Below, piece after piece: positions 20,001-58,100 of a stretch of DNA of 64,000 nucleotides; the first letter of the stretch is position 1, and the number at the start of each line of letters is the position of its first letter. This DNA comes from Spizellomyces punctatus DAOM BR117. Its lineage: Eukaryota. The position numbers and the translations under genes are program-made. A model generated the notes under the pieces. The model did no database searches, had not been told where the DNA came from, and worked only from the letters and a program-made list of their open reading frames with translations. The stretch is taken from NCBI GenBank assembly GCA_000182565.2, contig KQ257466.1. One strand, given 5' to 3'.

Positions 20001-23000
20001 TCAGCGTCAAACGATGGCGGCAATTCCAACCACCTCCGTGATCAACAACCTGCTTATTGACACTACGAAACTCAAAAGCATTCTTGTCCCGAGTCCAGAA
20101 AGATGTTTTGCGGAAGTTGCCAAGATCTTACCTGGTCTTGCGAGGGATAAGAATGAGTTGCTGTTGAATGAAGTTCAGACATGGGTTAGAATTCTCAATA
20201 CCCAGCCTGGAAACGTTGAAGGCTTTGTCGAATACTTGGAGTGGCTTGAGAAAGGTACTATAAGAGATTGCTCACATCAATCTAAATAATGACACTCATC
20301 ACTTGGACATTTCCGCTATAGTTAAGGACTCGATGCCCCTTGTGGAGCAACTTTACGATGAGGTCACACGCCTCTACAACTTGATGGATCAGTACAAGAT
20401 TGCAATTCAGCCGACAGACCTGGCATTGTACCAAACCTTGGGACCAACCCTTCGCCAATTGAAAGAAGCCGTCGATATGGCGTCGGACACGAAAGAAGAG
20501 AACATCAACAAATTCTCGGCGGAACTTGATAAATCAATGGGAGACCTCATGACGGAAGTTTCAGAGATTCGCAATCGCGCACAAGACCCAATGGTGCTCA
20601 ATCCGGGTGCCAAGAGTGACATGGTTATCAAATTCCTGGAGGACTTACGAGGACAGTTGGAGAAGGTTGATGCTACAAAAGGACGGTATGAAACATGGGG
20701 TGAGCTTTTCAAAGATGGCGGAAGTGTGGCAGCTATGAAGAAGGGTGCTGCGGCGGCCGCGGAGCCGGGAAAGGCTGCGATCCCTGGTGTACCAACTAAA
20801 ATGGGGGAGTTGGAGGAGACGAAGAATGAGGTGGAGCTGAAAAGAACGCTCTGGATGAGTTTGAAAGACTGGGAAGTCATTACTCGGTAGGTGTTCGAGT
20901 TTACCCAAGTAGTGCTCCATAAGACGATAAATGTAACATTGCAATGTCCCTTCTTCGTGCACTAGGTCCTGGAAAGAAGGGTCATTTGATATGCTGAACA
21001 CGGAGGACATCAACAACCAAATCCAAGCTTACATCAAAACCGTCTATAACCTGGACAAGGGTCTCCCGCCAAACGAAGTCGTTCCTCGACTCAAAGCCAT
21101 GGTTGATGAGTACCGAAGCATGTATCCGACGATTGTTGACCTCCGCAATCCCGCCCTCAAGCCGCGACATTGGGAAAGATTCACAGACGCCCTCGGAAAG
21201 CACTGGTGAAAGACGAAACGTTCACCTTGGAGAGGCTGATGGACCTCCGCGTTTTTGATTTCAAAGACGAAATCAGTAACGTCTCGAGTCAAGCTGGTTC
21301 TGAAGCAGCCTTGGAAGAGATGTTGGGTAAAGTTATCAAAAACTGGAACGAGGCCGAATTTATTGTTGCTTCCTATCGAGACGCCAAGGATGTATTTATT
21401 CTGGGCACCGTCGACGATATACAAACATTGCTAGAGGACAGTCAGGTCACCATTGCGACAATCAAAGGATCACGGTTTATTGGGCCCATTCGCACAGAAG
21501 TGGATAGATGGGACAAGCAGCTGACTTTGTTTGCTGAAACACTGGATGCATGGTTGACGTGTCAACGGAACTGGCTTTATCTTGAGAGCATCTTTTCTGC
21601 TCCAGACATCCAACGCCAACTTCCCGATGAAGCCCGAATGTTTGCTCAAGTCGACCGTAGCTGGAAGGACACGATGAGAAAAGTCTATCGAAATCCCAAT
21701 GCCATGAAATCTGGCACGACACCCGGTCTATTGGAAACAATGGGGCAAAATAATGTCCTTTTAGATCAGATTCAGAAATGTCTCGAAGACTATCTGGAGA
21801 GCAAGCGGCTACTGTTCCCCCGATTTTACTTCCTATCAAACGAAGAGCTCCTCGAAATCTTGTCCCAAACACGAAACCCGCAGGCAGTTCAACCACATCT
21901 CAGCAAGTGTTTCGATGCCATTAAATCTCTTGAATTCTCTTCATCGGATCCAAAGAGCATTGACATTGCCGCGATGGTCAGTCCCGAGGGTGAGCGCGTG
22001 CCATTCCTGAAAACAATCAAAGCCCGTGGTAACGTGGAGGCGTGGCTGGGAAGCGTGGAGGAAGGCATGGTAGCCGTTCTCCGGCGGTTGATTAAACAGG
22101 CATTGGCAGAGTTTGAGGATGCCAAGCGCGGGGATTGGGTTAGAGAACATGTTGGGCAGGTAGTTTTAACGGGAAATCAGGTCTTGTGGTGTAGAGATGT
22201 CGGCGAATGTTTGAAGACAGCAGATCCAGTCAAGAGTCTGGTGGCTTTCAAAGAAAAATGTGTCCGGGTAAGTAGGACACGCTACGAAATCTATTCGCAA
22301 TCATTCGGTTGGCATGTATAGCACTACGGTATCTAAAACCTTCCTAACCTTATAGAATCTTGCCGGCGTGGCCGCCCTCGTCCGTGGAGATCTTACCCGC
22401 ATCCAACGGGGCATTCTTGGTGCACTCATCACGATGGATGTGCATAATCGCGACATTGTCCAAAACCTCATTGACGCNNNNNNNNNNNNNNNNNNNNNNN
22501 NNNNNNNNNNNNNNNNNNNNNNNNNNNNNNNNNNNNNNNNNNNNNNNNNNNNNNNNNNNNNNNNNNNNNNNNNNNNNNNNNNNNNNNNNNNNNNNNNNNN
22601 NNNNNNNNNNNNNNNNNNNNNNNNNNNNNNNNNNNNNNNNNNNNNNNNNNNNNNNNNNNNNNNNNNNNNNNNNNNNNNNNNNNNNNNNNNNNNNNNNNNN
22701 NNNNNNNNNNNNNNNNNNNNNNNNNNNNNNNNNNNNNNNNNNNNNNNNNNNNNNNNNNNNNNNNNNNNNNNNNNNNNNNNNNNNNNNNNNNNNNNNNNNN
22801 NNNNNNNNNNNNNNNNNNNNNNNNNNNNNNNNNNNNNNNNNNNNNNNNNNNNGATTGGCTCAGTCCGGTGCTTGGTGTTGTTTTGATGAGTTCAACCGTA
22901 TCGATATCGAGGTGCTCTCCGTTATTGCTCAGCAGCTTTTGACAATAAAGAATGCAAAGGATATGAAAGCGACCAGGTTTATGTTCGAGGGAAGGGAGAT

Positions 23001-26000
23001 CAGATTAATCGACACTTGTACAGCATTTATCACTATGAATCCTGGGTATGCCGGACGTCAAGAGTTACCGGACAACTTGAAGGCGCTTTTCAGACCTATT
23101 GCAATGATGATTCCTGGTATATTTATCATGTCTGGTTATAAGGTGAAGCATCAAGTGCTAATCTGCGGCTCCCTCCTGACAGATTACGGCCTTATTGCCG
23201 AAATCTTGCTCTTCTCGGAAGGATTTGAAAATGCGCGAGTTCTTGCCGGAAAAGTTGTAAACCTCTACAAACTCTGCTCTGAACAACTCTCCCAGCAGGA
23301 TCATTACGATTTCGGCATGCGAGCCGTCAAATCCGTGCTCATCATGGCGGGCGCCCTCAAGCGTACCAACCCAGAACTCAGCGAAGAAATGGTTCTCATC
23401 CGTGCACTGCGGGATTCAAATCTTCCCAAATTCTTGGCTGAGGATATTGGCTTGTTCCGTGGTATCCTTTCTGATCTCTTCCCAGGTGTCTCCATCGTGG
23501 AGCAGGATTACGGTGCTCTAGTCGCAACGATCAAGGAAGTGATGATTGAAAAGAAGTTGGAGGTTGTGGACAACTTTGTGACGAGAATCTGCCAGTTGTT
23601 TGAAACGAATAAGATTCGGCATGGTGTTATGCTTGTTGGACCCACTGGAGGTGGAAAGACGACATGTTATCAGGTCTTGCAGGAAGCTTGTACTAGATTG
23701 CAGGAGAGAGGAGATGTACAGTTCCAGGCTATCAAGACTTGGGTTCTTAATCCAAAGGTATGATCATGTCGTAGTTCCAAGTCCATATGTCATATTTTCA
23801 TACCATATAACAGTGCATCACAATGAACGAACTCTACGGAGAATTCAATCTGGCCACCATGGAATGGAAAGACGGTCTGATCGGTTCCATTTTCCGTCAA
23901 CAAGTTCAGGACAACAGTGCTGATGAAAAGTGGACCGTTTGCGACGGACCCGTAGACGCACTTTGGATTGAGAACATGAACACTGTCCTAGACGACAATA
24001 AGCTCCTCACGTTGATCAACGGAGAACGAATCAAGATGAATAATACTATGCATATGTTGTTTGAAGTGGCGGATTTGGCTGTTGCGTCTCCTGCCACGGT
24101 CAGTCGATGCGGCATGGTATACATGGATCCTACCAACCTGGGCTGGCGGGCTTTTGTTCAAAAGTGGCTGCGTGAGCTACCGGAACATGTTGGAACAGAG
24201 CTCAAGGATATGTTGTGGAGTTACTGTGACACGTACATTGACAGGGGACTCCGCTTTGTACGAAAACAGTGTACGGAGTACGTCAAATCTGTCGACCTGA
24301 ATCTGGTGCAGTCTCTGTGCAAGCTTCTACAAACCTTCATCAACAAAAAGGAGGTCGATTTTTCGCAGGCCATTGGAGATTTGAAGTGCTTATTCGGCCA
24401 TTTGTTTGTATTCTGCTATGTATGGGCCTTGGGTGGAAACCTGGCAGATGGATTCCAGGACAACTTTGATACGTTTGTCCGAGACCATTTCGACGCAATC
24501 CCAATTCCGGATGTACAGTTACCGTCTTCCAACAACATCTTTTGTTACTATGTCGACCTCAAGACCAAATCATTTGCCCTTTGGGATGACCTGGTGCCAG
24601 CCTTCAAGTACGCACCCGAGATCCCTTATTTCCAAATGATGGTCCCAACGACGGATACAGTCAAGTACGAGTACTTTCTCGAAGCCCTCTTGTCGAATGG
24701 ATACCCGACTTTGTTCACGGGTAACACCGGTGTTGGTAAATCCATTATTGTCCAAAATTTATTGAACAGGTGCTCGAAACGATTCGGATGGGTCCCTGTG
24801 ACGCTCAACTTTTCTGCCCAAACCAACAGCGCCCAGACGCAGCAGATTATGGAAATTAAGTTGGAGAAGAAACGAAAGAATATTTTGGGTGCACCCACAG
24901 GAGCGAACAAGGTTGTCCTGTTTGTGGATGATTTGAACATGCCCAAGCTCGACACCTACGGGTCGCAGCCTCCTATCGAGCTCTTGCGGCAGTACATTGA
25001 TTTCCACGGATTTTACGACCGAGAGAAACTCAGCTGGAAAATAATCCAAGATGTAGAACTAGTGGCTGCTTGTGCACCTCCTGGAGGCGGGCGCAACAAC
25101 GTCACACCCCGTCTTCTCCGTCACTTCAATCTATTCAACATTCCCGCGCCTAGCGAAATGTCATTAGGAAAAATATTCCGATCTATTGTGGAAGGATTTC
25201 TCAAGTCCGGCTTCTCATCTGAAGTGCGAGGTGTGAGTGAAGCCATTGTGAACTCGTCCATAGAGATCTACCATCGAATGTGCACAGAGTTACTGCCTAC
25301 ACCCGCTAAATCGCATTACACGTTCAATCTCCGGGATCTATCGAGGGTCGTTCAGGGCGTGCTACAGGCCCGTCCGCAGGTTATTCAAGCCAAGATGGAC
25401 ATTGTGAAGCTGTTTTGTCACGAGTCCTCCCGGATCTTTCACGATAGGTTGATTGACGAGGCGGATAGATCCTACTTTAATCGCCTTCTCTCCGAACTGG
25501 TTGAAAAGAACTTTGGCGTGAGCATACCCAAAGAAACTTTTAGCCAGAAACCAATCATGTTTGGGGATTTTGGCAAGAGGGGTGTTCCCCCCGAAGAGCG
25601 ACTCTACGTTGAGATGAGCGACATGAAGGCCATGAACACGCTGTTGGAAGAGTATCTAGAAGAATACAACGTGACAAACAACAAAGACGTTCGCTTGATC
25701 TTTTTCATGGACGCCAAGCAGCATATTACGAGGATATCCCGTATCATCCGGCAACCTCGCGGCAACGCTTTGCTGGTCGGTGTCGGTGGAACGGGAAAAC
25801 AATCTCTGACCCGGTTGGCCTGTCACATATCCGATTACCAGTGCATTCAAATTGAATTGACGAGGACGTACGGACAAACAGAGTGGCGAGAAGATCTTAA
25901 GAAATTGTACCGATTAGCAGGTTTGGAAGGTAAAAACACTGTATTCCTTCTCTCAGACACCCAAATCAAGAGCGAAACCTTCTTGGAGGATGTGAACAAC

Positions 26001-29000
26001 ATTTTAAACTCGGGGGAAGTCCCGAACCTCTTTGAGTTTGACGAGCGTGAAAAGATTTTGGGTGAACTGCGGGCTGTAGCAAGAGATAAGGGCTTACCCG
26101 AAGACCGAGACAGTGTATATCAGTTCTTCATCAACAGGGTGAGGGATAACCTCCACATTGTATTTGCGACAAGTCCTGTCGGAGAAACCTTTCGGACACG
26201 TTGCAGGATGTTCCCTTCCCTTGTCAACTGCTGTACGATCGACTGGTTTGATGAGTGGCCCAGAGAGGCTCTCCTCTCAGTGTCGAAACGGTTTCTGGAG
26301 TTCGTGGATTTGGGCTCAGACCATATGAAAGAAAAGATTGCTGAAATGTGTGTCGAGATCCACGAGTCCGTTGGAGAGCTTGCGAAACGATTTTGGGCTG
26401 AACTCAGGAGACGGTATTACACCACCCCCACGTCCTACCTGGAACTCATCAACCTCTACATTGCCATGTTGCAAGAAAAGAGGAAGGAACTTGGGTCCTC
26501 ACGGGATAGGTTACGAAACGGTCTAAATAAACTCCTCGAAACCAATGAGCTCGTCGCGAAAATGCAAGTCGAACTTGAACTCCTCGGCCCAGAGCTAAAA
26601 CAACGGGCTGCGGATACGGAGGCGCTCATGGTGAAGATTGGAAAAGATCAAGAAACAGCCGACGGTGTCCGGAAAGTAGTATCGGAAGAGGAAACCATAG
26701 TCCGGGCCAAGGCGACCGAAACAGAAGCCATCGCCGCAGAAGCCCAGCGCGATTTGGACGAAGCGTTGCCAGCTCTCAATGCGGCGTACAAGGCATTGGA
26801 CTCACTAGACAAAAAGGATATTGCTGAGCTCAAGGTTTTTACCAAACCTCCCGAGGTGGTCTTAATGGTCATGGAAGCTATTTGCACGCTCTTCAAAGTG
26901 AAACCCGATTGGGAAAGCTCCAAAAAGCTCTTATCGGACCCGCAATTCATGAAAAAGTTGCAGGAATATGACAAGGACAATATTCCCGAGTCGGTGTCCA
27001 AAAAGCTCAAAAAGTACATCGAAAACCCCAATTTCACTCCCGAGGCCGTCGAAAAGGTGTCCAAAGCGTGTAAAAGCATGTCTATGTGGGTGATTGCCAT
27101 GGACCTATATTCCAGAGTGTTCAAGGAAGTAACGCCTAAGCGACGGCGGCTAGAAGAAGCGCAAGCAGCTTTGGATGCCACGCGGGCTAAATTGGCAGAA
27201 AAAGCGGCAGCTCTTCAAGAAGTCGAATCCCAGCTGGAGAAACTCAAAGCCAAATACGAAGAATCCATCGCGAGCAAAAAGGAACTTGCAGAAAAAATGG
27301 AGGAAACAACGCGTCGGTTGGCTCGTGCTGGAAAATTGACGACGGCTTTGGCCGATGAACAGATTCGGTGGGCCGAATCTGTTGAAAAACTCAATCAGCA
27401 AATAGATGATTTGGTCGGGAATATTTTTCTTAGTGCGGCGTGTGTTGCTTACTTTGGCGCCTTTACATCTACCTTCCGTACTGAGCTTGTCACAGGGTGG
27501 ATCAAGCGATGTCAAGAGATTGGCATCCCCGTCTCAACAAACTTCAATCTATTGGAGAACCTCGCTGATCCAGCTGTCGTCCGCGACTGGAATATTCAAG
27601 GACTCCCAGCCGACCCTCTCTCGGTTGAAAATGGTATCCTCGTCACTCGGGGTCGACGATGGCCGCTCATGATTGATCCACAAGGACAAGCAAATCGATG
27701 GATACGCGCCATGGAAGGAAACGACCTCAAGGTGATCAAACTGTCCGAACCAAAGTTTCTCCGATCCCTTGAAAATGCCGTGAGAACGGGACAGCCTGTT
27801 CTCATGGAAGATGTTGGCGAGCAGCTTGATCCAGCCCTTGAGCCTCTCCTGTTGAAGCAGACCGTTCGACAGGGAGGGAGATTGCTGATGAAGTTGGGTG
27901 ATTCATTTGTAGAATACGATCGAAATTTCAAACTGTACATTACAACAAAACTCTCGAACCCGCATTACCTCCCCGAAGTCTGTATCAAGGTCACTATCAT
28001 TAACTTCACCGTGACAAAGATTGGACTTGAGGGACAACTCTTGGCAGATGTCGTCCGTCTCGAACGGCCGGAGCTGGAGGAACAGCGCAACAACCTTATC
28101 GTAAATATTGCTACAGACCGCAAAGCTCTTAAAGACATCGAAGAACGGATCCTGAAGCTCCTGTTCAACTCTGAGGGGAACATTCTCGATGATGAAGAAC
28201 TCATCAACACTCTCAACCAATCCAAAGTCACGTCCGCGGCCATCAAAGAGCGAGTCGCACAAGCCGAAGTCACGGAGCGGGAGATCAACACTGCCCGAGA
28301 AAAGTACCGACCCGTTGCAATTAGGGGTTCGGTGCTCTACTTTGTTGTCGCAGACTTGGCCGGCATCGATCCCATGTACCAGTTCTCGCTGAAGTATTTC
28401 AAGAACCTATTTAGCGGTTGCATCCTCTCTTCGGAGAAATCCGAGGACCTCCCAACGCGAATCGGGATTCTATGCAAAAATGCAACATATAATACCTTTG
28501 CAAATGTCTCGCGCGGGCTATTTGAACAGCACAAGATGATTTACGCGTTCATGATTTGCGTCGAGATTTTGCGGGAAAAGGGAGCCATTGATGATTTTGA
28601 GTGGAATTTCTTGTTGCGGGGTGGTGGTGCGTTGATGGTTGCCGGGGATATTCCACCAAAGCCCAACGTCCGCTGGCTATCCAATACAATGTGGGAGAAT
28701 CTATGCGATTTAGCGAGGTCGATACCCGATTTTGGGTACGCTATTGAGCATGTGCAAATGTATACGATGGACTGGGAGGCCATTGTTGAGTCGGATACAC
28801 CATACAGTGTGTCTGTCCCTGGCGACGACACAGGGCAATTAACAGATTTCCAGCGACTGCTGCTCATCAAGGTATTGAGAGAAGAGAAACTCGTTTCGGC
28901 TTGCGTGGAATTTGTCAAGCGAAACCTGGGCTCCGAGTTTATTGATATTCCGCCCCTCGACCTCGCGGTTGCATTCAAGGATATCAACAACCGTACCCCA

Positions 29001-31010
29001 TTCATCTTTATCCTGTCAACGGGGTCGGACCCTGTGTCCGCTTTGATGAAATTCGCCGCCTCAAAGGAGGTTAATATGCAGGACCGATTGCACATGATTT
29101 CATTGGGACAGGGGCAGGGACCTATTGCCGAGCAATTGCTGCGAAAGGCTATTACGAATGGGGATTGGGTGTTTTTGCAGAATTGTCATTTGGCAGCTTC
29201 GTGGATGGGACGGTTAGAGAGTATTGTCAAAGAGTTCTCCAGTACGGACGCAACGGATATTCATGAGAATTTCCGGATGTTTTTATCGTCGATGCCTTCG
29301 AAAGTGTTTCCGATTGCCGTACTCCAAGATGGTGTAAAAGTGACCAACGAACCACCAAAAGGTCTTCGGGCAAACCTCGCAAGAAGCTTTGCAGATGTGT
29401 CGAGAGATTTGTTTGATGATAGTCCACCGCAAGGAGTCAAGTTCCGGAAACTTTTGTTTGGAATCACATTCTTCAATGCTGTTATTCATGAACGCAAAAA
29501 GTTTGGGCCACTGGGATGGAACATTTTATACGACTGGTCAAATTCGGATTTAGAAGTTTCGATTGCCATCTTGAAAAACATGTTGTCGGAGCATCGAGGG
29601 ATACCCTGGGAAGCTCTGTCATACCTGACTGGGGAGATCACTTTTGGAGGCAGAGTGACAGATGATTGGGATCGACGGACACTGAGATCGATTTTGAATC
29701 GATTTTATTGCCCTGCGATTTTGGACGATGGGTACAGGTTTTCGCCCTCGGGCGTCTACTATGCGCCGCCGGATGGAGATTTAGCATCATTTAGAGCGTA
29801 TATTGAGCGATTGCCTTTTACGGAGGAGCCTTCTGTCTTTGGGATGCACGAAAACGCGGATATCAGTTTCCAAGTCCAAGAAACGCGCCGGTTGCTTCGT
29901 ACAGTGTTGGAAGTCCAGCCGAGGGTGGTGTCATCTGTTGCCGGTGGAACATCTAGCGAAGACATTGTAACGGGGATAGCGATGGCAATCTTAGAAGATT
30001 GGCCAGAGATTCTGGTCATTGATCTTCCACCCGAGACGGAAAAAAGACCGAAATCCGCATCAGCGCGACCCCAATCGGCATTTACTGGCGAAGCCCCGAA
30101 CCCCGTCCTACTCAACTTGTTCCAAAAAGATGAAACCGGCCGTATGCTAAATTCGCTGTCGACTGTCTTGGCACAGGAATCTGTGCGGTTTAATAAATTG
30201 AATGGGATCGTGAGGAGTTCGTTGGAGAATTTGGTAAAGGCTGTCAAAGGTCTTGTTGTCATGAGTTTGGAATTGGAGTTGGTCTATAAGAGTTTGCTCA
30301 ATAATGAGGTTTGCATTCTTTTCATTTGTCTTTGTTTTTACTTGAACTAACGCATTCAATGCAGGTGCCAACTGCTTGGTCCGCCCACGCCTACCCCTCC
30401 CTTAAACCGCTCGCATCCTGGGTCAAGGATTTCCACGCCCGAATCACCTTCCTCCGAAACTGGATGACCCAAGGCGAACCCACTTCCTTTTGGCTACCAG
30501 GTTTCTTTTTCCCACAAGGATTTTTAACGGGCGTATTACAGAACCATGCGCGCAAGTACAATATTCCGATTGACGCTCTGAGCTTTTCGTACAAGGTTTC
30601 GGATTACGAAGGTGGGGATGGACGGGCTTTTGAGGAGGGAGAGGGTGTGCTCGTTCACGGATTGTTTGTGGAGGGGGCAAGATGGGATAGGGAAAAGAGA
30701 CTATTGCAAGATTCGTTTCCCATGGAAATGTTTTCGGTATGTTGCATGTTTTTATCTATTTTGTTAGTCTCGCATTCGCTGACCTTCCCCATAGACCATG
30801 CCTCAAATCCGCTTCACTCCTACTACCGCCCCATCTCCAACCACCGGGTTCTATACCTGTCCCCTCTACAAAACATCCGCCCGAGCCGGCACACTCAGCA
30901 CCACAGGCCATTCCACCAATTTTGTCGTGGCTCTCTCGATTCCGTCCGATCGACCGCAAGATTACTGGATTTCAAAGGGTGTTGCACTGTTGTGTCAGTT
31001 GAGTGAATAA
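17019..31010 (+). CDS. DNAH6: Axonemal inner-arm dynein heavy chain, DNAH6-like, multi-exon
   Basis: [25 protein letters not shown] (DNAH6-type tail), [46 protein letters not shown]-loops [16 protein letters not shown] and GVGGTGKQ, stalk coiled coil, and C-terminal [31 protein letters not shown]. The start codon is uncertain, the AAA1 P-loop lies in the N gap, and there is an apparent frameshift near 21200. Confidence 0.93.
22478..22852. other. Assembly gap (375 N) inside the dynein AAA1 region
   Basis: Run of N. Its size is compatible with the ~125 missing codons expected between DVHNRDIV and [13 protein letters not shown]. Confidence 0.98.
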
Positions 31011-32965: not shown

Positions 32966-34990
32966 TTAAAAAACAAGCGATGAATTCATTTCCACTGGCG
33001 ACGCAAAGACCTGGGGACGCCGCTTGCTAGGTCCCTGGTCATCATCCTCATCCTCGTCGTCCCTCTTCCTCTTTATGCTTTCCCTGGGGGGACCCATCTT
33101 GGGCCGCTTACTCCCTTCTCCGCGACCTTCATCAGCATCTTCCTGCTCTTCCTCTTCCCCATCCCTTTTTCGTTTAGTTTGATTCTTGAATGGAGAGAGG
33201 GGAGGAGAGTGGTACTCGCCAAAAAATAATTCGAAGTCCCCTAGATGGAGGGTATTAGAAATCATGCCATTTTGCCACAAATGTTCAAACACGTACCTGA
33301 TTCCGCACCAATGGGATCGATACCGTGCAATGGTCGATTGTATCCTACGCCGTTCCACACATCACTCAAGGAGCTTTGACCAAACAGGCCTCCGAAATCT
33401 ATCGCAAAGTCGTCGGGTATATCCCCACTGAAGCCAAGGTTGCTCTCAAAGACACCTCGCGCTTGCTCTCTGGCTTCCATCAAGACGGTCTGTTGGGGTT
33501 GAGTGACCGCGGCAGTACTATCTACGGCGTTCGCAGCTGGCACCGCGGGTGGCACGATAGGAGGTGTTTGGTGCTGAGTTGTTGGGGCGGCGGTAGATAT
33601 GGGCAGGGGGGATGCAGACGCGGCAGTTGCAGGGATACGCGGCACGATCGTCGAAGACGTGCCCGGTTGAATTTGCGGATTGGGGACCTGCGGCACTGAT
33701 GTCCTAGAGACGGGTATATTCCCTGTATGATGCTCGGCTTTCAGATGACCGGGATTGACAAGTTGAGGTGGCGGGCGGGTAGGTAACTGTAGCGGAGCGG
33801 TCGAGCCCTGGAGTTGTGCTTGGGTCGGGATCGGAGGCTTGCTAGAACTTGGCGGCCGCCGAACTTGCCGTGTCTTTTTGCCGCTCTGGCTTGAAATAGA
33901 TGCACGGCGCTTTTGGGACCCAGTGCCCTGTCCAATAGACGAACCGCCCATTTCCATAGGGGGATGCATTGCCTGCGATACTTGAATGCTCGGAGACGCC
34001 GCAGGAAGCATCGCGGCAGGTACAGGAGGTGGGATAGCCGCAGTCATGGCAGAAAGCATAGCGGCAGGAAGGACAGGAGCAACGGAGCGCGGGAGCGTAG
34101 GAGGTAGGGTGGGAGGGAGGGAGTGAGGTAGAGTAGCTGCTATGACAGAGGGAACGTCTGGTGGCCGCTGTGACGCACTTGTCCTCTTCTGAGGGCTAGC
34201 CCGCATCTGAGGAGGTCTGGTGGCTTGAATGTGCTGTTGCTGCGACTGTGGTTGGTGCGGTGATGTTGAAAGCTGGCTATGTGACTGGCCAACATTAGCG
34301 TTCGAGATCTGCTGAGCCGACCGCTGCATGTCAATCGACTTTCGCAGAGTTTCTCCGCTTTGATACAAGCGCCGCAAGTTTTGCAACAAAAGCTCAGCAT
34401 TTGCTGGCGTCAGGTAATATGTGTCCGTAACGAATCCGTCCAACTGTCTGGTCCACATTGCTTTCAGTTGCAGGGAGCGTTTTGCCTCCATGTTTTTACC
34501 ATGGGTAGCAAACAGTCCAATCAAGGTATCTGCCTTTCGGTACATGTTGTCCTGAGCTTCCAATTTGGAACGCACGAAAGCCTTCTCTTGTTCTGTTAAG
34601 GCGATTGGTTCCATGCGGCAACTTTCTGCGGCAATCTGCGGAGTTCCAGCCATGGTCGCCGACGGTGCACTGGCTCCTTGTCTAGCGGAAGTCGGTGGAG
34701 ATGCCGCAGAGGACACGGCCGCCATGCTGATGTTTGGCAAAGCGCTGGAGATGGCACTCGAACCGGCCATACCTGCGGCCAAGTGGACTTGATTGCCTGG
34801 AAACGGATGGGTTGCGGCATTGGACAACTGGGGTTGCAGCGATGCTCCAGAAGAAGCAGCTCCTCTTTGCAGCTGGGCGGATGCAGAATTGCTCAATGCT
34901 TGCGCCCTCTGCGCGGCCACCATTTGCGCCTGCGCTTGAGCCTCAGAGGCTTGTCGCATCTGTTGTTGATGCAGCTGCACCCGTTGTTGG

Positions 34991-35022
<32 letters not shown>

Positions 35023-36424
35023 TTGCTGTTGATGCTGCTGCTGCTGCTGCTGCTGTTGTTGTTGGTGTTGTTGTTGGTGTTGTTGTTGGTGTTGTTGTTG
35101 GTGTTGTTGGTGTTTTAGCTGAAGGCGCTGCGGCTGCTGTTGCATCTGCACTTGCTGCTGCCTTTGTTGCTGCTGTTGATGCGCCGCTGGGGTCTGAACT
35201 GCACTAGGCGTAGGAACTGGAGGGCGCTGGACATTGCCTTCAGGTTGGATCACGGGCCGCATTGCGGCCCGTGACCTTTCCTGTTCGGCCTTCTTTTGCA
35301 GCAGTCGTTCGGTGAATTCAGGAGGAATGTTGCGCTGACGGCAGAGTTCCCTTAGCTGTGCCAAAGTGCTGGTGTTGACGAGGTGCATCAGTTTCGGATC
35401 ACCAAACGGTTGGCTCAACTGCTGCTGACCCGCCGCACTCGTGTTAGGGAGGGCGGTGGTTGATGGCGGAACAAGTGGTGTAGACATCATTGACGTAGAA
35501 GACGCTGGCTGGGACGGGGTATTAATGCCGACTGACTTGACATTGTGGTTACTCAGAATCTCGTTGATTTTTTGATTCATGGCATTCACATATTCGTCCT
35601 ATTCAAGGGGGGGGGGGGGGTGGAAATCCATCAGCTTACGCAATCTCGTATCATTTGGATGAGAGCATACATTACCTTGGTAAAAGCTCTGCGAAATACT
35701 CTTGTTTCATAATCGCTGGCCATGGCCTCAACTCTTTCAGCAGACTGAACTTTTGCTGATTGCAGCTGAGACACAGCATGAATACTAGATGTAACCGTCA
35801 AAGGACATTGTTACTTCGCATTAGACATGAACATTGCGCGGTCGAAAGTTGGTCACTTACAGTCTATCAATATATTCTTTCCTGAAGTTTGCGGCGGCTG
35901 TGAGCCTCCAATCCCCGACTTGAAGTCCTTGCAAAGTCTGTGGCTGGGCTTTGGGTTGTGCCTGGGAGGGTTGCTGCTGAACCACCTTTGGTGTCTGCGC
36001 TTGTTGTTGGGAAGCCTGCTGTAGCGTCTTTTGTTGTGGTCTGGCTGGAAGACCCAATTGAGCAGCTAGTTCTAAAGGGCCACCCAAGCGGACTTGTTGA
36101 GGTTGCACTGCTTGAGCGGCTGGCTGTCTGGCCAACTGTTGCTGAACGGATTGTGATTGAGGCGGTAGATGATGACTTTGCTGGACGTGCATAAGTTGCT
36201 GAGCTTGTGCCTGAGCTTGGGCCTGAGCCTGAGCTTGAGCCTGCTGCTGCTGAAATAGTAGCGCTTGCTGGGCGTATACGGCCTGAGGTTGAAGGTGGGA
36301 TGGGAACTGCTGCTGAATGGGAGCGACACCTTGAGGCGGACGCATCTGAAGAGTGGAAGGTGGCATAAAGGCAGGTCGTTGCTGCTGCTGCTGCTGTGGT
36401 TGCTGTTGTTGTTGGTGTTGTTGT

Positions 36425-45697: not shown

Positions 45698-48593
45698 CTA
45701 AAGTCCCAAATCCTTACGAATCATATTTGCGCAGATAGGGTGATAAAAGTTTCTGTTTTGTAGGAATGTTTTCTTGGCCAAGGCTCCTCCGTTTTTGCAC
45801 TTGTTCAAAGCCCGGTACAACGGCCGCACAAACTTCATTCTCCCCACCTGACGAAACAACATGCTTAATAGCTAGTTGTAGTTGCCATGCGATGTTACGA
45901 TTCTTACTTCTGTGAGAAACCGGGTGACCTCTGGGAAGACGGTCTCGTACTCTGCATTCAGACACAACCACTGCCACCTGCACACCCCCTTTGATCAGTC
46001 CTGTGCATGAGGGGTAAAAAGTGCCAGCACCACTTACCGGAATCGGATCTCAGCATTAGTGACACTAGATAAGGTGTATGTTTCGTCCATAGCTGCGAGA
46101 AGCTCGTGCGGAAAGGCAGATTTTAGTAGACACTTTTCGAGGAACATGACTTTAAGCAAAGAATGTTAGATACTGAGGAGCAGAATCATGACAAGGACTT
46201 TGACTACGCACCTTTCTGATTGGAGTTGAACTTTTCAAATACCGATTTATCAAATTGAGGCTGTTTGCCCCTGCATGCATCCCATTCGTCAGCGAGATCT
46301 TGGCAAACTTGAGCAAGTTCTTGGTTAAAGTCGTTTTTCACAGGAGGCTAGATAGAAAAGATGTCAGCAGTGGCTGGCCAGAGAGTAGTGATAATCAACA
46401 CCGACCATGCCGGGCTCAAATAACCACGCGTTCCAATCAACTGTGTCCAAAAGAGCAATCTTTTCATCCCCATACGAGGTGCGATAAAATTCGTACAAGA
46501 ACCGCTTAAAGTCATCAGTCGCAATCGACGTGTGGGCGAACTTCGTGACGTGAGCTATGAGAAATCAATAGGTCCATGAGTCACTTCATGCTATCTACAA
46601 TATGAGCCCGTGCTCTTTACCCTTAAGATAAGGCTCTGCCGCAAGATTACATCGGTATGTGAGTATCAGCAACTGTCGTGGCTGGCTTTAATGAATCCTC
46701 ACCGAATACATCCGGGCCACCCAGCAGTCGTTCAAGGTAGAACAACAGGTTGAAACCCTTTTCTATGTAACTGTTCAGCATCAAATAATGGAATCGCTCA
46801 TTCAAAATACATGGATACCATAAGGAACCGAAGAGAATCTGCATCAATTATGGAAGGTTAACAACATGGATAAGGCTATGGAACACTCGTAACGTATATA
46901 CTCACGCCTAGTGGACACCATTTTGCCACGAAACAGAGTTGATTCGGACGAGCTGAGTAAAAGGAAACAGTTCTGGATTCCACTCAACGCCTACCTCGTC
47001 GGGATCTTCATCCCGTAAACAGGGACACAAGCGCGAGAACTCCGGGCGCTTGATCTCCTCAAAATGCTCAACCGACTCCGAGAGAGCTTTCAACCCGATA
47101 ATGGCATCGAACTCGAGAACAGGTTGCCCATGGAGGCGACCGGCGATCTTCCGTTCTATAAATACCGTAAATCCCTCATTTAACCAGAAGTGCTCCCAGT
47201 TTTGGGTCGTAACCAAGTTGCCCATCCAACTGTGAGCAATCTCATGAGCAACCACATCAACTAAGCTTCTGTCACCAGCCAGGAGAGTTGGGGTGACGAA
47301 CGTAAGGCAGGGGTTCTCCATACCCCCATATCTGTGAGTACCAAGTCGCAACATATATTATTACTAGATCACATAGCGAACGGAAGAAGAAAGATACAGA
47401 CGGGAAACTCGGAGGCAGTACAAGTAAGTCGTACAGGCCCCATTCATAAGGAGTGAGCTGAAAAGCGCAGGTTAAATTTAACAGCCTGCACTTAAAATAC
47501 TAGTAAAACTCACCAGCTCTTCGCCAGTCTTAATGAAACGCTCAGTGTCGATGAATTCCCACGCGGAAGCCTCGACGTTCTCAGGTTCACTCCACACTGT
47601 TGAGCGGGGTCCTATGGTTCGACCTTCGAGGTTTCCAACTGCTAGAGCGATTAGGTAGGACTTTTAAAAAGAACTTGTTACACCAACTCCCATTGTTTAA
47701 TGAATGTATTGCTGCACCTACCGGAACTCCCACATTCTGGGCAAAGCTATACACTTTCTGATCCCCTACGGTGCGTTCACCGGTTCGTACAGCACTCATC
47801 AATGCACGAAGATGCGAGGGGACGACCACGTCTGCCGACCACTTCAACTTGTTTCCAGGGGTGTCCTGCCAGCCAATTATTAGCATATTTTTTTTGAAAA
47901 CCATGTAAATGCTAGGCCTTGTATGTTGCATAAATATATCTTCTGTGTGGATATAATGGAGATCTCTACCTGACACGGCAGCATGCTGCGGGCATGAATC
48001 GCCTTTAGAGGAACATTTGAGTAAAGCAAACGCAAGATCAAGTTGACACAGTAGCACACACCTGGCATTGAGAAAAGAGGTATGGATATTTCTTTCCCAT
48101 AGTTTGGCTTCACGCACGATCGTCAATATAGTGGGCTGGACGAGATGGTCGCGGGTTTACTACAGTTACCTTGGCTCTAGCCACTGAAGAGCAGTACATT
48201 TTTCTGTGGTAGCATATTCAATGCAGACCTTAACTTCCTCATCGGTCCCGAGTGGCTTCTCGAAGTGGATGGTAAACTTGGACCCGAACTTAGGGTGATG
48301 ATCCGCGACGATGAACTGCCCGGACGTTAGTTGTAATTTTCAAATATACCGCAAGAAAGCTTCTCCAGTGTAAGTACCTTCAAAGGAACTCCATTAACTG
48401 ACACACTCTGAATGTCGAGAAAGTTCGAGTCCAAGATCAACTGAGAGACATTGGGTTGAACTGCCCGTGCCTGGTGCACGACTTGCCCATGTAAAATGCG
48501 ACGATCGAAGTCGGCTGTTAGTGTGAGGTGGGTATGCTTCACCACAATCTCATGTACGTTTGCAAACGAATTGGGATCCGTTGGGCACGTCAT
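45698..48593 (-). CDS. LAP2: Leukotriene A4 hydrolase / M1 aminopeptidase (Lap2), many exons
   Basis: [76 protein letters not shown] and C-terminal [16 protein letters not shown]. Confidence 0.95.
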
Positions 48594-49179: not shown

Positions 49180-52100
49180 TCATTGCCCATGACGCAACTT
49201 CTTGGAGATGTTTGTTCGGTGCTTGGTTCTCGCAAACTCCTCTGCTTTCCGCTTTCGGTTTGTGCGTTTCATGTTGGATTTTTGAAGTTTTCGCCGGGCT
49301 CGTGCTTCTGGATCCAGAACAGCCTGTACGTTCCTTTGTACTCTCCGTTCTTGCCTGACCGTCTGCACTCGGAAATGCACTTGATTGTAGACTTCCAGGT
49401 AATCTGCAGTACCGACCTGCCTCTGAATCAATTCCATGACCTCGTTTGCTAGTAGGCGCAGCTCGTCTGCGTTTAAAATTATCTGGTGAGAAATCTCCAC
49501 CGAGAGCTAAAGTAATCTAAAATCGCACCTGCATCGCTGCCCTTGGCAGTCTCGTCTTTGGACGTCCGGTATAACGTTGATACCATCGGAACAAGATATA
49601 GTTTCAGATGTACCGATGGAATGTACCTACTCATGGCCGCAAACCATTGAAAGACGCTACGACGCTGATCGAGAGAATCACATTTAGTAAAGTTCGTGAA
49701 TGCAGGAAATCATTCAGAGTATTTGACTAACCAGGATAGGTCCCCGCTTCTTGGAAGCCTCAGCTCTTGCCAGGTACGACAACTTACGGCACAGTGCAAG
49801 TAGCAAATCACCATGTGAGGGTGCGTCATCTGGTCCCGAGCTGGGAATCTGGTCCTCCAATATGGGTTCGCTCTCATGTGATGCGGTATCGTCCAATTCT
49901 TCCAGGGATGGTACCAGCCCTCTCATGGCGAAGTTGCCCTTGTTTAGCTCGTAGAAGCACTTTCCAAGGAAAAATAGGTTTTTTACTACTTGCGTAGCAA
50001 GATCCGTCGTCAACAAGTCAGAATTCAACTGAGCACAGAAAGAATTGCCTAGGTGTTTAAGCGATTCTTGGCTAGCCAGGACGGTATGCGGACTTGCCAC
50101 TCGAGAGTTAATCACCTTACGGGATATAACATCGATTTTACCAAACAAAAGGCCAAAAGAGCGGCTACAGGCAATTCGAACCCATTGGTGAGGATGTAGC
50201 AGTAGCCGGTGGACGTGTTGCCAGATTGGTTCGGTTGCATCCATGGTGTCGGGATATTGTACTAGAACCTTGGAAAAGGTGTTCACGGTATAATACGCAA
50301 TCTGCCAGGTGTGGCCTTCTTCAATTGGCCCCGTCTCTTCTTGTTCGTTGGTTCTACCTTGCTGCTCGGCCACTTCGTGCAGCACTTTCTCCAAATGTGC
50401 CAGTAATGCTGGTGGCCATCTCTTTTGCTTTTCGCCAGAGGCTTCCACCATGAGTCCGGCAACCTGCGCGGCTGTGCGCTGCAGGTGTGGTTGCGTGTCC
50501 TGCTCGAACCATTTTTCCACTAGAAGCTGCAATTTGGATACTCGATTCCCATCCAAACGAGCCGTCAGGGTAGAAAGGAGGGAGCCAGATATCTCCCTGC
50601 ACTTTGCGGAATCGTCGTTGACTAGATTCATCACCAAGGCGACAAAGAGCATTTCCGCGTAATGAAATATCATTTCATCAGCCCCCTTATGGATCAGCAA
50701 GTTTAATATCTCGAGTACTGACTCGCGTCCGCTTTCGTGTTCGTATGCCAGATTTTTAACCAAGTAACCTAGTTGCTTGCGCAAGCTATTTGGACCATGT
50801 GGGTAGTTCAAGAGGAATTGGAGATACGTTTGTCGACAAAGATCGCGAACTTGAGCACTTTGACTTGTCACCATGCACTTCCGCACAATATCCATCAAAT
50901 CATAGATTTCTTTGACAAGAAACTTCCGTCCCAGGATCGCACGGATGAGGGAGAATACCGTCGTCTGCCGATCCGGCACTTGTGTTTCTACATCGGGACG
51001 AATGACATCGAGTAGTGCGGCAATTTGATTTTGATCAATTGGCACATAACTACAGTCCCGTATTATGGTGGTCAATAAGCGGAAGGCGGCCTGGACCAAT
51101 TCGGGATTCGTAGCCAGGCTCCTGCTCACGATTTCAAACAATCGCTTGAGAACGATCGGTATGGTTTCCTTCAGCTTCGGCAAGGGTGCTTTTGCAAGGA
51201 TGGTCAATATTCGCAATGCCTGAATGCTAACTGCACTATGTTTGGAATATAGCGAACGGCCGAGAAGTTCAAGTAATGGGTCTAACATGCTCAGGTGACG
51301 TTCGTTCCGAATGCTGACGCGTTCCGTCCGTAATGCTGTCAATAGGAGGGACAGCCCGAAGTTAACAAACATATGTGCATTTGCTTGAAAATACTTCAAA
51401 GGCTCAACGCAATCAGTCCGCTTCAGTTGAACCAGAAAATTTTGCTCGACGACTGCTCTCTCCCTTTTTGTCTGAGCTGGCATTTGGGATATAGAAAGGC
51501 TCTCGGTCACAAGGTTATGAATGAAGACCATCAAATCGGTCTCGCTCAAGCCCGTGTTGCTGCTCAGACCGACTGCAAGCTTCCTTAAAACCTCTTCGAG
51601 TTTGCGTATCACTGGCGCACTATTAGTTTCCAGCATGAGCTCCTTCAGCGGTAGCAGCAGAGCTCCGATCATATTGAAGCTGACTACTTGAGATATGAGC
51701 TCAAAAGAATCAAAGCTTTTCGTAACTTTAATCTCACGCATCTTTCCTCGAAGTTCCTCCACTTCCCTTTCCGCACCAACGTCACCGAAGATATCAGCCA
51801 TGCAGATTCGGACAAGGTTTCCTACACACGCGTCCAACTGCCCGGCAGCAACAGTGGGAACCATGTTGGAAACTAGAGAATGCACCGTAAAACCGAGGAC
51901 ATGAAGTTGATACCCTCTCGTAAGCGCCCCTTCGAGTTCTTTTAAGATGAAAGGTAAATACTCAGCACCCAAAACTGCAGCAATCTTAACCAATGTGTCC
52001 CGTGTCCGATCGCGAGCATCTTGGCCTCGAGAGCGAAGAAATTGGCAGAGTGTTGTAATCAGCTTAGGCAACTGAACCTGTATACTTTTTTCCGGAAGTT

Positions 52101-55100
52101 TCTGCAGTAATTTCGCAATAGCCAGAGCCAACGGGACTCGAATAGGTATCGTGTTGTCGTCAACTGCCGCCAGGTAGCCTTGCAGATCCGGCAAGAGCCT
52201 TTGCATGACCGTACTATGCACCCGTTCAGTAAGCGAGATGTCCGGCATCTCACTACCCAATTTGTTCACCATGCCTTCGGCTCCTTCATCTATCTGGTCC
52301 TCATCGATGTCAACTTCAACATGGTCATTTGCATCTTCAGGTACGTACAACTGAACTGCACTTTCTTCACTGCTCACATTGGGCATCGCGTGATCATTCT
52401 TTCCTGAGACATCGAAATGGAAATTATCCAGCACGCTGATGATGACCCGGTTTATCACTTTCTCAAGTGCCGGCTTGTGCTGTAGGGCGTTGAGAAACCG
52501 TTTGAGCAGTCCATAATAATGTCCCCAACTCAACGATCCTGCACATGCTGCAAGGGTAGTAACCGCTTCATTGATTAGGTCGTGATCTTGCACACGGTCA
52601 GATTCGAAAATAAAATGTACAACGATCGGAACAAATACATTAGCGATGTTCCCGACCGTTAAATGTCCCGCTCTACATTCATCGGCAAGGCGTCGCAATG
52701 CACGAATGCGTCGATGTATTTGCATGTGGTATATATTGCCGAAGAAACTGGCTTCCTCATCGCCGTCAGCCAAAAGACCCACCATATCAGAAACAGATGA
52801 CAAAGATGGGAAAGAGCGCACAGTCTGTGCCAACAGATTTAGAAACTCCTGTCGGATCAGCTCGATCTTGAGCTTGAACCCTCGTCGTATCCTCGGAAGT
52901 ATAACGTGAACCAACAAGTTCATCCGCTCCGCACACTCTTCTGGCGTGTCCCTATGCCGCTGTTCCGACGTTCGGGCAATAAATTGGGATACGCAAAAAC
53001 CGGCGCTAGTACGAATGGAGAACTCTTCAGGTTCCTGAATGTAAAACAGCAGGTTATGCAAAATTGGTAGCCATTGCGTACAGCTCAACGTGACGTAGAG
53101 AGATTGACTGATGCGTCCAAAGGCCTCAAAGCGGCGATCAAAGTCTGGTTCGTCAAGGCGGTTTGTGGAATATGCGTTTAGCCCATGTATGAGCTCTGAC
53201 ACAAGGTTCAGACTAGCATCAAGCTTGACAAATTCCGAAAAGACTTTAAGTAATTGTTCGCGCGCTTCTCTACTTTCTAGCGTTCCAAACAGTTGGGATA
53301 TGACCTTGAAGTAAATTGTGCCACAGGGTGATGTTTCCCTCAACGCAGGTAATATGGACACGAAGTCGGAAAAAATCCGAAGGATTTCGACCTTGGTGGA
53401 CTCTGGAACAGCCTTCGCGGGCCGTTTTAGGTAAGGTAGCATCATGTCCAGCAGATTAGACGCCTGATCAGCATCCGTCACGTGCATGGATATCTGTGCC
53501 AGGATGCGAATCACCCGAGCGGGAATAGTGTTGCCCAGTAATCGTGTTGGCCCCTTGTCTTCGAAAAGAGAAGAGAGCAAACAGCGGAGATTGAACATCA
53601 GCACAGATAAACTCGGTTTTATGATATTCGTTGCCAGGGAATCGGATGGATACTCGTCATCCAATAGCAGAATCGCTTCAACGATTTCCAACACGACATT
53701 GACGACCGCGGGTTGTACTTTCTTCGCGGAGAGGAGAGACAGAATGCTCGGGAATAAAAGTGGCGAGTAATCGATCAAATACGATGCATATTGTCGATGT
53801 TTCGACCATGTCCTCAGAAGCTCAAGGAGTGAACTAGGCGCCTGCGTATTCTCAACACCGAATGCGGCAATCCGTTTGTTGATGGACGTCTGGAACATCG
53901 CCGGGATATACGGGCTAAAGTCAAAATCCAAATCCACCTCAAATAGCTCGTTTACCCTACGGATTGCGAGAACACGAATCTCCTTCAGTTGCTTGTCGAC
54001 ATACGATTCCCCTGGATCCTCATTTGTCTCAGAGGACCGGTTATTTCTTTTGCGATCTTCCTCGAGAGTATTAGAAAAATGTAGCAGGTATAGCAGGACT
54101 TTTAGTAGCTTTGGTAGGAAGGGGACCAGTAGATTCCTCAGTTGCTTAATGGCATCTTGAAGCAAATGCAGATAGCCAATTTTTCTCTTCATGTCCCTGA
54201 GCGATTCGTTCATTAAACCATCCGTTATCTGCAAAGGGGCCTCAAAGGTCGGTTCCGGAGTACAGACGACGGCATCGAACGAGTCTAGCATCATGTCAAA
54301 GATGTGTGCGCGGTAGGACTCATCTAATCCAGCTAGAAACGCGAAAATCGCCGTTCGCCGGGCTCTTAACATCATTGCAGAACTTCGACCTCGTTTACTG
54401 ATGAGCTTGCCGTACAGAATGCGCACTAGAACCTGGGCTAAAGGCGCCTGATCCACAACTTTCACATTCGCATGAATGTCCTCCATATCCACCTTTGAAA
54501 GAGTGTCACGAAACTTATCGTCCTCGGTAAGACATTTCAAAGCATCTTCCAAATATAGGATCCCCGGCTGTTTCCAGGCGATTATACATTCGAGAGCCAA
54601 TCTCTGAAGCCGATCATCCCCATGCGAAAGAAGCTGCAGGTAAACGTTGTACAACAAATGCGACTTATAAATACGGGAAGGTTGCCTAACTTTCGACATG
54701 ACACCTAGGAAATCGATCACTCTCATTCGACATCCATCTCTGATCTCAACATGCGCTTGCTGACGCTCTGTGCCTGCTCCATTTGGTAGAGGTTGACGAG
54801 GTTGAAAGGTGGTTTGACGACAATCCTCCATCTCAAATAGCGCGAGGAATATGGAAACAATCTGCTCAGAATGCTTCTCGACGGCTTGGGGTACACCAGA
54901 GAGAATGCCTATGAGAAGAGAATGATATTTCACCGGATCGAAACGATGGCTGGAAATGGTTACTAGATCTCTTAAGAATATGGACAGGCGGTCATCGATA
55001 TCAGTGTAAACGGCACGGACTAAGATAGTCCCATCTGCGACATTTGTGCAGTTCACCGTAACGCCGGGTTGCGGAGCTTCGAGCGCCGGCGAAACGTCTT

Positions 55101-58100
55101 CCTTGTTCTCCAGACCTGCCTGATCACACATATTCATGTCTTTTCGTATCATGCAAGTTACATCCGCTCCTAGAAGCGTTTCATAATATGCTGACCAGAA
55201 AAGGCTCAGATCGCGTTGTCCAAGGTTGCAAACGAGTTTAGTGGCTTCGGCCCAAAGAGGGGTGAACGGCACACTCAACATCGCCAACGCATAGCGTAAG
55301 GGCGCCTGCGCATACATAGCCGGCAGAGTACCAGACAGAGCTAGGGACTCGAGACGCCGGAAAAGGATGGTCTTCTCTCTAAGTGTCGCGACCGTGTTTG
55401 CAGTGCGTTCCACCTCCAAGCAGATCGCAAAAACAGGACAGGTTCCAGTATATGCGCTATCCTTACTAGGTTCCAGAGGACACTGATCAAACGCACATAA
55501 TATTCGTAAGGTATGCAGTCGAACGTCCCCGTTCAGAGACCCAATATCTTTACCAATAGTGGCAAAAACTTCTCCAAGATTACCGGTAGATAGGAGAGCG
55601 TGATCGCCCGACCGCTGAAGGACTTCTACAAAGTCGGCCACCCCTTGCAGAGCTACAGCATTGTTGACAGCATAAGGCAGAAACGAAGTGATGATCACAT
55701 CCCATGCGTCGCCTAAGCGATGAATGCTCCCACTCCGTGAAGCAGATTCAGATAGAGCACCGATCACATGGCCAGCCAAAGCAGACATTACAGCGCGGCT
55801 GGCAGGGTCGGTCAACATGTCGCCAGAGAGAACGTCCACGAGCGATGCTATCAAAGCATTTAGAGCCTCAAAAACGTCCGCAAATGGTAGCGCAATGTAA
55901 GGGATGGTTGAACATACGGCGGCAAGTAGACCGAGATCTGAAGATGCCTGATGCGATTCGTTCGCGATTTCTCGAAACTTAGCGTTCCAGCTTTCTCGCT
56001 CTCGCAATAAATCAATAATTGCCGGAGCTATATCAGATTCAGGCTTGCTTTTAATCTCATTTCTTGTTGATGATCGGAGGTAGCTCACATGAGAGTCAAA
56101 GCGAATGCGATTATCAGCCGTCTTAAAAGAATATGGAAGGGTTGCGATGTATTGATCGATCTTGCCGCAAAAGCTCGCTAAACACAGAATAAATTCTTTT
56201 GGATGGAGTGCCCATCTTCCTTGTATATATCTGGGATAGATGACATGAATACGAGCCGTATGATGCGGACAAATCCGGATGTGTCACTTACGTCAACAAA
56301 TACGGAAGGATGATTCTGGGGAAGTGCTCCCAATTCCGATGATGGAGCAGGTCGCAAAAATGGAGGACGAGTGCGAAGTCCTACATAGCAGTTATCATAA
56401 GAATCAGGCACACGTTATTCAGAGTTCGATATGCAACCGTACATCAGTTGTGAAGAGGGTATTCAAAATATCCTTCCCACGGGTAAGCACCTCTTCCATT
56501 GAAGAAATCAGCAAGCATTCGGCCAGCAGCTCAACAAAAGCTGTTTTTGTGTGCGATGGGCAGTCACCGCGCGCCTCGTAAAGAAGTTGGCAAAGAGGGT
56601 TCAATGTCATATAGAGCGACTCTCGATCTGTGAAGTCAGATGAGATAAGGCGATCAAGTTCCTTCATTTACGCACCACTTCAATCAACGTACTTGTGACC
56701 TTTCTGCCATTGCGAAGAGCAACCCAATTGCGGATCAAATGCATTATTTTGCTTAGTTGCATATAGATAGTCGCTGTTGGTGTTCCTGCCCTAATTTTTT
56801 CCATCCATGACTGCAACTCGCTTAACAAAGTATCCCATAGAGGGATCAGATTCTCAGTTGCGGTATGATGCCCGACTAGTTCAAATAAGCGCTGCAGCAT
56901 CCGGTACGCAGGATCTGAACCTAAACATTAATACTTGAAAAGTTTACAATGACAAACGCTGTCCGAAATACCGGTGTCATCGGATCCTTCACTCAGTATT
57001 ACCAAGAATAGCTGCCTCACCATTACTGGTGACCGGTAGTGGACGTTTCCGTCTACTTGCTGCAAGGACGGTAGTGTGAGATACCATACGTGGGTCGTGT
57101 TCGTCATGCCATATACGTGCCTTAACAGCTTCGAAGAAAAGTGCGCTGAGGCCATCGAGAAGAGGATCCTCAGGGGTCGCTCTGAGGCGCCGGATGATGT
57201 CCTCATACAATAAGGCAGCGGATGCTCCTTGAACCTTTCGCATCAACGATCCGAAGGATTCTGCTGCAAAACGCCGAATGTACTCTTTTGTGCTTCTTAA
57301 CAGTGGGACCATTAAGCTATTTTTCAAGTACGCAGAGGAAGGAATTAATGACCGGGGCAACCGATGAATCGCGAATGCAACATACTCAAAAGTCGAAGAC
57401 ATATCATTTAGTAGGTATTTGGATTGATATTTAACAAGATACGCGAGAGTATTGAACAGGCACTATAATGAAAGGTGACGCAAGAAAAATATGATGAGAC
57501 CCCCAGTCTTGATGGCCCCAGAGACATCAGGACTTACCTCGGTTAGTTTGATATCTGATATTTGGAGCAATCGAACAATGATTTCAAAAAGTGGACGGAT
57601 ATAGGGATGGAAATCATCCTGCAGATCTCGAGCTAACGCCACGGTCAAACTGGAAAACGGATTAGTAACATGCTCCCATCGCAAGCAGGCACTCGTATAC
57701 GTACTCCAAAATCGGCTCGTACGCGAGACTGTCGAATATTTGAAGATGACGCATGATCAATGTCATCATCGCATCTTTATGATATAGTATTTGCACCAGT
57801 GACATGGACAAGGGCCGCACATCCCGGACAAATGAAGTGAAGTGTCCAGTACAGTTGACTTCCACCCATCGATCAAGAGCATCCTTGAAGAAAGAGCCAT
57901 CCTCGTCCTGGTGACAGTTGCCAGATCAGACATTTGTACAAATGTTTGAACTTTCAATGTCCCGAGAACAAGCAAACGTACCTCGATTGGACCATGTTGT
58001 CGGACACGATGAGCAACGTCGATTTTCACCGTTTTGATACGATCATGAAACGATTGAAACTAAGACAGTTCAGGGTGAGAAATCCTTATATTTCGGGAGA

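Follow-up and report, generated by a model that had tools for sequence, protein, structure and literature searches.

Exons of a single nucleotide have been described with RNA verification in Arabidopsis (PMC4674806), in other plants (PMC8831610) and in the Fusarium P450 gene CYP621A (PMC12940212). The element described here is a predicted exon of two nucleotides, GC, in a gene for an M1 aminopeptidase of the leukotriene A4 hydrolase (LTA4H) type in the chytrid fungus Spizellomyces punctatus DAOM BR117. The gene lies on the minus strand of a 64,000-nucleotide stretch of contig KQ257466.1 (assembly GCA_000182565.2), and this whole stretch is called the window below. The exon was first proposed by a reader who saw the letters of the window and ran no database searches, and that proposal is called here the sequence-only reading. 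Following it up leads us to expect, with good confidence, that the mRNA keeps GC as an exon of its own, forming an alanine codon between DPDE and FSSVPYEKG. With more reserve we favour the fuller account, in which the GC exon is real and owes its birth to an intron gain in the Spizellomyces lineage, the newcomer lying two bases upstream of a phase-2 intron of ancient date.

The Fusarium case resembles the chytrid locus in its anatomy, since there too out-of-phase exon ends lie in a conserved motif and have no other link than an AG-N-GT in the middle of an over-long 'intron', and it resembles it in its argument, which uses fixed motif spacing and relatives at a site where automated models are wrong (PMC12940212). 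The Fusarium exon is 1 nt long, was confirmed by RNA-seq and is conserved in 20 orthologues, whereas the chytrid exon is 2 nt long and was read from the DNA of one species (PMC12940212). The chytrid case also differs in that an origin can be proposed for it, namely that a newer intron severed the end of an old exon. The plant genes APC11 and VPS55 likewise hold ultra-short constitutive exons between two ordinary introns, missed by annotation, for which the authors propose intron definition and a one-by-one, recursive-like removal (PMC4674806, PMC8831610). Those plant exons were verified by reverse-transcription PCR and reporters and are conserved across land plants, whereas the chytrid exon is predicted from sequence (PMC4674806, PMC8831610). 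Stwintrons of filamentous fungi are a further likeness, being two touching U2-type introns that are spliced consecutively and are linked to intron gain or shift; in a stwintron the external intron has one of its splice signals broken by the internal intron and no base is left between the two, whereas the chytrid introns are adjacent and not nested (PMC5587772, PMC6616335). A stwintron was considered for the chytrid locus and rejected, because the frame is lost if the whole stretch from 46995 to 46838 is taken out, and two bases must stay. In the open-access literature searched in full text, we found neither a fungal 2-nt exon nor a chytrid microexon of any size.

The gene was modelled with tblastn guided by the protein P0009, and each junction was read. 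In model order the exons measure 216, 146, 46, 33, 144, 147, 56, 337, 2, 20, 60, 15, 149, 136, 112, 70 and 150 nt, and the spliced model that includes GC is a complete open reading frame (ORF) with no internal stops. The sequence-only reading had placed the flanking exon ends, the introns of 87 and 67 nt and the GC between them, and each of these elements was found where it had been placed, in the phase given for it (Table 1). Exon 8 closes with the codons GAC GAG, its 3' end at 46995, and exon 10 begins at 46838 with A TTC TCT TCG GTT CCT TAT G, which requires two preceding bases for its frame (phase 2). A direct join from 46995 to 46838 does shift the frame, as had been said, and meets a stop 7 codons on. 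The 87-nt interval itself ends in an in-frame TAG. Two codons upstream of the 46839/46838 acceptor there is a TGA in frame with the FSSVPY exon, so that this acceptor is fixed and cannot be shifted upstream.

All canonical, in-frame, stop-free splicing solutions were then enumerated, giving 15, four with one intron and 11 with two. Only GTAGGC...CACTAG-GC-GTGAGT yields DPDEAFSSVPYEKG, the family motif that the GC had been predicted to restore; the other 14 add 2 to 24 residues. The surroundings of GC show several of the features expected of an ultra-short microexon: an AG upstream, a GT downstream, introns of workable size, and restoration of both the frame and a conserved motif. The arrangement is rare, with 5 occurrences of AG-NN-GT[AG]AGT in 128 kb (both strands) and AGGCGT[AG]AGT at this site only.

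Retention of either intron predicts truncated proteins of 403 and 376 aa, and exon skipping predicts one of 381 aa. The sequence-only reading saw skipping as an off switch: the GC exon would be real, and it would be skipped in a regulated way to turn the gene off. Skipping would indeed bring the early stop described above and a product without the catalytic Tyr, but the same premature-stop effect would follow from mis-splicing of any frame-critical exon. No sign of regulation was found either: the RNA fold of 176 nt spanning both introns showed no special structure (z = 0.12), and an Rfam scan of the gene region returned one sub-threshold chance match only, with no match to an RNA family. Regulated skipping appears improbable, and of the proposed switch what is left is the premature stop.

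The identity of the gene, which the sequence-only reading had named as LTA4H-like, was borne out by protein and domain searches. A protein search with exon 8 found 7843 proteins at E <= 0.001 among 8000 scored candidates, and all those listed are of the LTA4H type. The top identity was to P0017, from Spizellomyces sp. 'palustris' (98% over 83% of the query). With P0017 excluded, the top identities were 89% in the search among longer proteins and 93% over 63% of the query in the search among proteins of similar length; other chytrids reach up to 89% identity to exon 8, and P0009 has 87% over it. From these matches the window belongs to a Spizellomyces-like chytrid of the order Spizellomycetales, which bears out the chytrid origin assumed in the sequence-only reading. 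We define an LTA4H-type M1 aminopeptidase by TIGR02411, or by PF17900 with PF01433 and PF09127. The domain scans of the window's gene were made on single exons, and these matched Peptidase_M1_N, Peptidase_M1 and Leuk-A4-hydro_C in Pfam. Exon 8 scored 3.8e-26 against PF01433 and 3.3e-53 against TIGR02411, the latter being 181 bits over profile positions 256-365 for the one exon, where the equivalog cut-off of 761.7 bits is meant for a whole protein; P0009 scored 774 bits against the same profile. The last exon matched PF09127 (Leuk-A4-hydro_C) at 3.5e-18, with 66 bits for a cut-off of 27. The model carries GGMEN (residue 265), HEIAH (292) and WLNEG (312), so that the GXMEN and HEXXH-(18)-E patterns are both present. 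Altogether the gene is predicted to be an intact, intron-rich LTA4H-type M1 aminopeptidase, a statement about its family that does not imply hydrolysis of LTA4.

The M1 architecture and the catalytic motifs are held in common with the human and yeast leukotriene A4 hydrolase/aminopeptidase (PDB 1hs6, 2xpy and others), which allows the GC exon to be placed on a known structure. Exon 8 aligns to residues 268-376 of the 611-residue chain 1hs6_A, and the last Asp of DPD falls on chain residue 376, which we take to be Asp375, assuming that the initiator Met is counted in the chain. With this assignment the GC exon begins the codon of the Ala377 equivalent, between the equivalents of Asp375 and of Tyr378 and Tyr383. 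Catalytic roles of Asp375, Tyr378 and Tyr383 are described in PMC8954237. At position 378 the chytrid enzyme has Phe in place of Tyr.

The segment DPDxA[YF]SxVPYEKG is in frame and has its fixed spacing only if GC is retained. When 102 homologues with lengths of 450-760 aa were aligned, the spacing from PD[DE] to xFSxVPY proved free of indels in 101, and the exception is the faulty model P0017. This constraint bears on the other ways of joining the exons. One of them, named by the sequence-only reading as the outcome that would refute it, is a single 145-nt intron with the donor GTGGAA (46983) and the acceptor 46839/46838; its product would be a protein of 615 aa with VGVE replacing Ala. That intron is canonical, in frame and stop-free, but it adds 3 residues between the Asp375 and Tyr378/Tyr383 equivalents, just where the homologues do not vary in length. 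The remaining two-intron solutions, such as those with the donor GTTGAG at 46988 and the same GC exon (DPDEVGAFSS), or with an internal exon of 14 or 23 nt, are also canonical and in frame. They would insert 2-24 residues into the same segment, the GTTGAG donor scores -4.42 bits in the comparison given next, and we find these solutions scarcely credible.

Donors were scored with a position weight matrix built from the other 14 introns of the gene, a small sample that makes every score rough. On that scale the donor of the 87-nt intron has 5.55 bits and outscores 7 of the 14 others, and the GTGAGT donor of the 67-nt intron has 3.01 bits and outscores 4 of them. The donors of this gene are degenerate, a point in favour of GTGGAA, but GTGGAA scores -2.69 bits, which is below all 14 others and puts it at the 17th percentile when every GT of the window is ranked. 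Iterative harvesting of further introns for the matrix drifted to dubious sites (from 14 to 35 extra introns), a strict pass gave 5 extras of which at least one was doubtful, and neither set was used. Intron length points the same way as the donor scores: the other 14 introns span 56-104 nt (median 61.5), and the introns of 87 and 67 nt fall within this range. A lone intron of 145-156 nt would exceed every other in the gene, the 145-nt one being 40% longer than the longest of them.

Other chytrids provide information on the downstream intron. The protein collection includes ORFs called on genomic chytrid contigs, and such ORFs run into introns, so that the point where they leave the motif can mark an exon end. 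Among 240 proteins fetched, 125 read through VPYEKG, 15 reach VPY and then diverge, 81 end before the motif and 19 break right after PD[DE]x. The 15 that diverge after VPY mark the position of the window's 56-nt intron, with fungal fragments reading ...VPYG. Among the 19, four stop exactly at DPDDA (P0121, P0122, P0135 and P0150) and four read DPDDA-Tyr followed by nonsense (P0010, P0123, P0126 and P0141). Reading through GC-GTRA or GC-GTAY, as at a phase-2 intron, yields Ala and then a stop or Tyr; with phase 0 the expected residue is Val, and with phase 1 it is Gly. Gly follows the break in P0130 and P0147, and Val in P0229. When the eight DPDDA fragments were compared with the window's model and 31 named fungal, mostly chytrid, proteins, the window's protein was the best match for five, and the other three were nearest to Batrachochytrium. 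These fragments suggest that a phase-2 intron in this Ala codon is widespread in chytrids and that the window's GC-GTGAGT is an old exon end, which would make the 67-nt intron the old phase-2 intron of the Ala codon. The single GTGGAA intron would leave a perfect AG-GC-GTGAGT at this old exon end unexplained.

The upstream 87-nt intron seems to have a different history. The normal motif is present in 9 of the 10 chytrid models fetched, all but P0017, and an annotation pipeline cannot yield the normal motif across a 2-nt exon, so those nine probably lack the 87-nt intron. P0017 continues past DPDE through 22 codons that can be aligned with the first 22 of the window's 87-nt interval. Its Val after Glu implies that the GT is kept at the donor of the 87-nt intron. 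At the codon of the alternative donor P0017 has Arg where the window has Trp, and Arg codons never start with T, so that the GT of GTGGAA is impossible there. With its weak score, its length and its three extra residues, the GTGGAA intron seems to us quite improbable as the one that is used.

The window and P0017 agree at 17 of 22 codons in the interval and at 242 of 248 in the exons on either side (Fisher p = 0.0008), and this lower identity of the interval indicates that the 87-nt interval evolves as non-coding sequence. The simplest history is that the 87-nt intron would be a phase-0 gain in the Spizellomyces lineage, shared with Spizellomyces sp. 'palustris'. A second copy of this intron, as for an introner-like element, was sought in the 64-kb window and none was found, the best other match being 12 nt; a comparison with the rest of the gene on either strand gave no similarity beyond shuffled controls. 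Bases 2-13 of the 87-nt intron (TAGGCGTTGAGT, 46982-46993) form a near-repeat of the TAG-GC-GTGAGT 83 nt downstream (46900-46910, minus strand), with 11 matching bases and one extra T in the upstream copy. Shuffling gave p ~0.0035 for a comparison that was chosen post hoc and in which part of the match is donor consensus. The near-repeat might be a footprint of the intron gain.

Several points weigh against the inclusion of GC and against the history proposed for it. A same-species or transcript-derived protein, sought with exon 8 among longer proteins and those of similar length, was not found. The residue is a weak argument where the spacing is a strong one, because Ala is not invariant among homologues (mostly Ala, also V, S, Y, C and T). 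The roughness of the donor scores belongs here as well. No YTNAY branch-point motif was found 6-49 nt from the 3' end of the 87-nt intron, whose nearest candidates are TCAAC at ~31 nt and TTTAC at 50 nt; 2 of the 14 other introns likewise have no YTNAY in that range. The old intron position was read from ORF ends rather than from DNA. The public model of P0017 has neither GGMEN nor the catalytic Tyr segment and departs at four places (the 33-nt exon, the intron with a GTCTGT donor before GGMEN, the microexon site and the C-terminal exons), so that its failure at the GC site is not diagnostic. Its ...SVSMNGYD cannot be aligned unambiguously to the window, and AG-GC-GT was not confirmed in the sister species.

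The lack of RNA evidence and the poor branch-point motif of the 87-nt interval would also fit a locus that is not expressed as a functional protein, either as a young pseudogene or as a misassembly in which two bases at the exon end went missing. The rest of the gene speaks otherwise, since the other 15 junctions and 16 exons are intact and stop-free, and the excess of identity in the flanking exons over the interval indicates that the exons are under purifying selection. In P0017, which comes from an independent assembly, Glu-Val (GAR GTN) likewise stands straight after DPD, so no GC is missing there, and a chance AG-GC-GTGAGT in the middle of the interval is unlikely when the 10-mer is unique in 128 kb. 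A pseudogene or an assembly error is to our judgement very improbable, and the retained GC exon continues to be the reading that we prefer.

If GC is retained, the proposed mechanism is that a pair of short U2-type introns, 87 and 67 nt long and 2 nt apart, would be removed separately while GC survives between them. By the history favoured above, gain of the 87-nt intron would have severed the last two bases of the old exon. The AG of the 87-nt intron's acceptor occupies positions -4 and -3 of the second donor. Since two spliceosomes cannot act 2 nt apart, the introns would have to be removed one after the other, and, if the 1-nt exon in Arabidopsis APC11 is taken as a guide, the splice sites may be paired across each intron (intron definition) in a sequential removal. 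GC is preceded by AG in either case, be it the end of exon 8 or that of the 87-nt intron, so the context of the second donor would be the same whether or not the first intron had been removed, and either order would be possible. Intron definition or sequential splicing, as the sequence-only reading had suggested, stands as a reasonable interpretation of the kind given for the published 1-nt exon in PMC4674806.

Table 1. Predicted features of the LTA4H-type peptidase gene around the GC exon (positions in the window)
Feature	Position	Strand	Description
LTA4H-type M1 peptidase gene, whole coding region	45698..48593	minus	17 exons, 16 GT-AG introns, 612 aa
Exon 8, 337 nt	46995..47331	minus	holds GGMEN and the HEIAH...WLNEG zinc site; phase 0 end at ...DPDE
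Upstream intron, 87 nt	46908..46994	minus	GTAGGC...CACTAG
Candidate 2-nt exon GC	46906..46907	minus	bases 1-2 of the Ala376 codon (model); aligned to human Ala377
Downstream intron, 67 nt	46839..46905	minus	GTGAGT...GATGCAG; TTAAC 19 nt from 3' end
Exon 10, 20 nt	46819..46838	minus	Ala codon base 3, FSSVPY, Glu codon base 1
Next intron, 56 nt	46763..46818	minus	GTATCC...ACATAG, phase 1, after VPY
Alternative donor GTGGAA of the sequence-only reading	46983..46988	minus	145-nt intron if used

The 2-nt exon would not be the only very short one in the gene. The model also has exons of 15, 20, 33 and 46 nt, which indicate that the organism splices very short exons. The 15-nt exon (46621-46635, minus strand) encodes part of EPYLK and is flanked by introns of 67 and 66 nt. 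The peptidase gene packs 16 introns into 2.9 kb, and single exons of great length lie nearby: the dynein heavy chain motor region (23811-30347, plus strand), a UTP20 homologue (49717-56283, minus strand) and a Med15-like protein (33265-35598, minus strand). Intron density thus varies strongly between adjacent genes. The window also contains an assembly gap of 375 N (22478-22852), in the region of a large plus-strand gene.

The 56-nt intron that follows FSSVPY begins with GTATCCAT and carries TGCTGAAC some 12 nt before its 3' end, which is poor in pyrimidines. The consensus of U12-type donors is GTATCCTT, which the start of this intron resembles. In other chytrid fragments the donor at the same position looks U2-type (GTAAG...). 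Spizellomyces punctatus is named among the fungi with minor introns in PMC10639083. The 67-nt and 56-nt introns resemble each other over 19 nt in their 3' parts, a likeness set aside as not significant (p = 0.055, with several of the 120 intron pairs equal to it).

If confirmed, the GC exon would be among the smallest nuclear exons known. It would not change what is known of splicing, since 1-nt exons are already documented. It shows a route by which such exons may arise, in which an intron gain severs the last bases of an exon, and it is an example of a site that automated annotation is bound to get wrong, as the model of the sister species does. This fungus is regarded as genetically transformable. 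If the gain reading is true, the locus would offer a datable natural intron gain beside an existing intron, and a test bed for minimal exon size in an early-diverging fungus.

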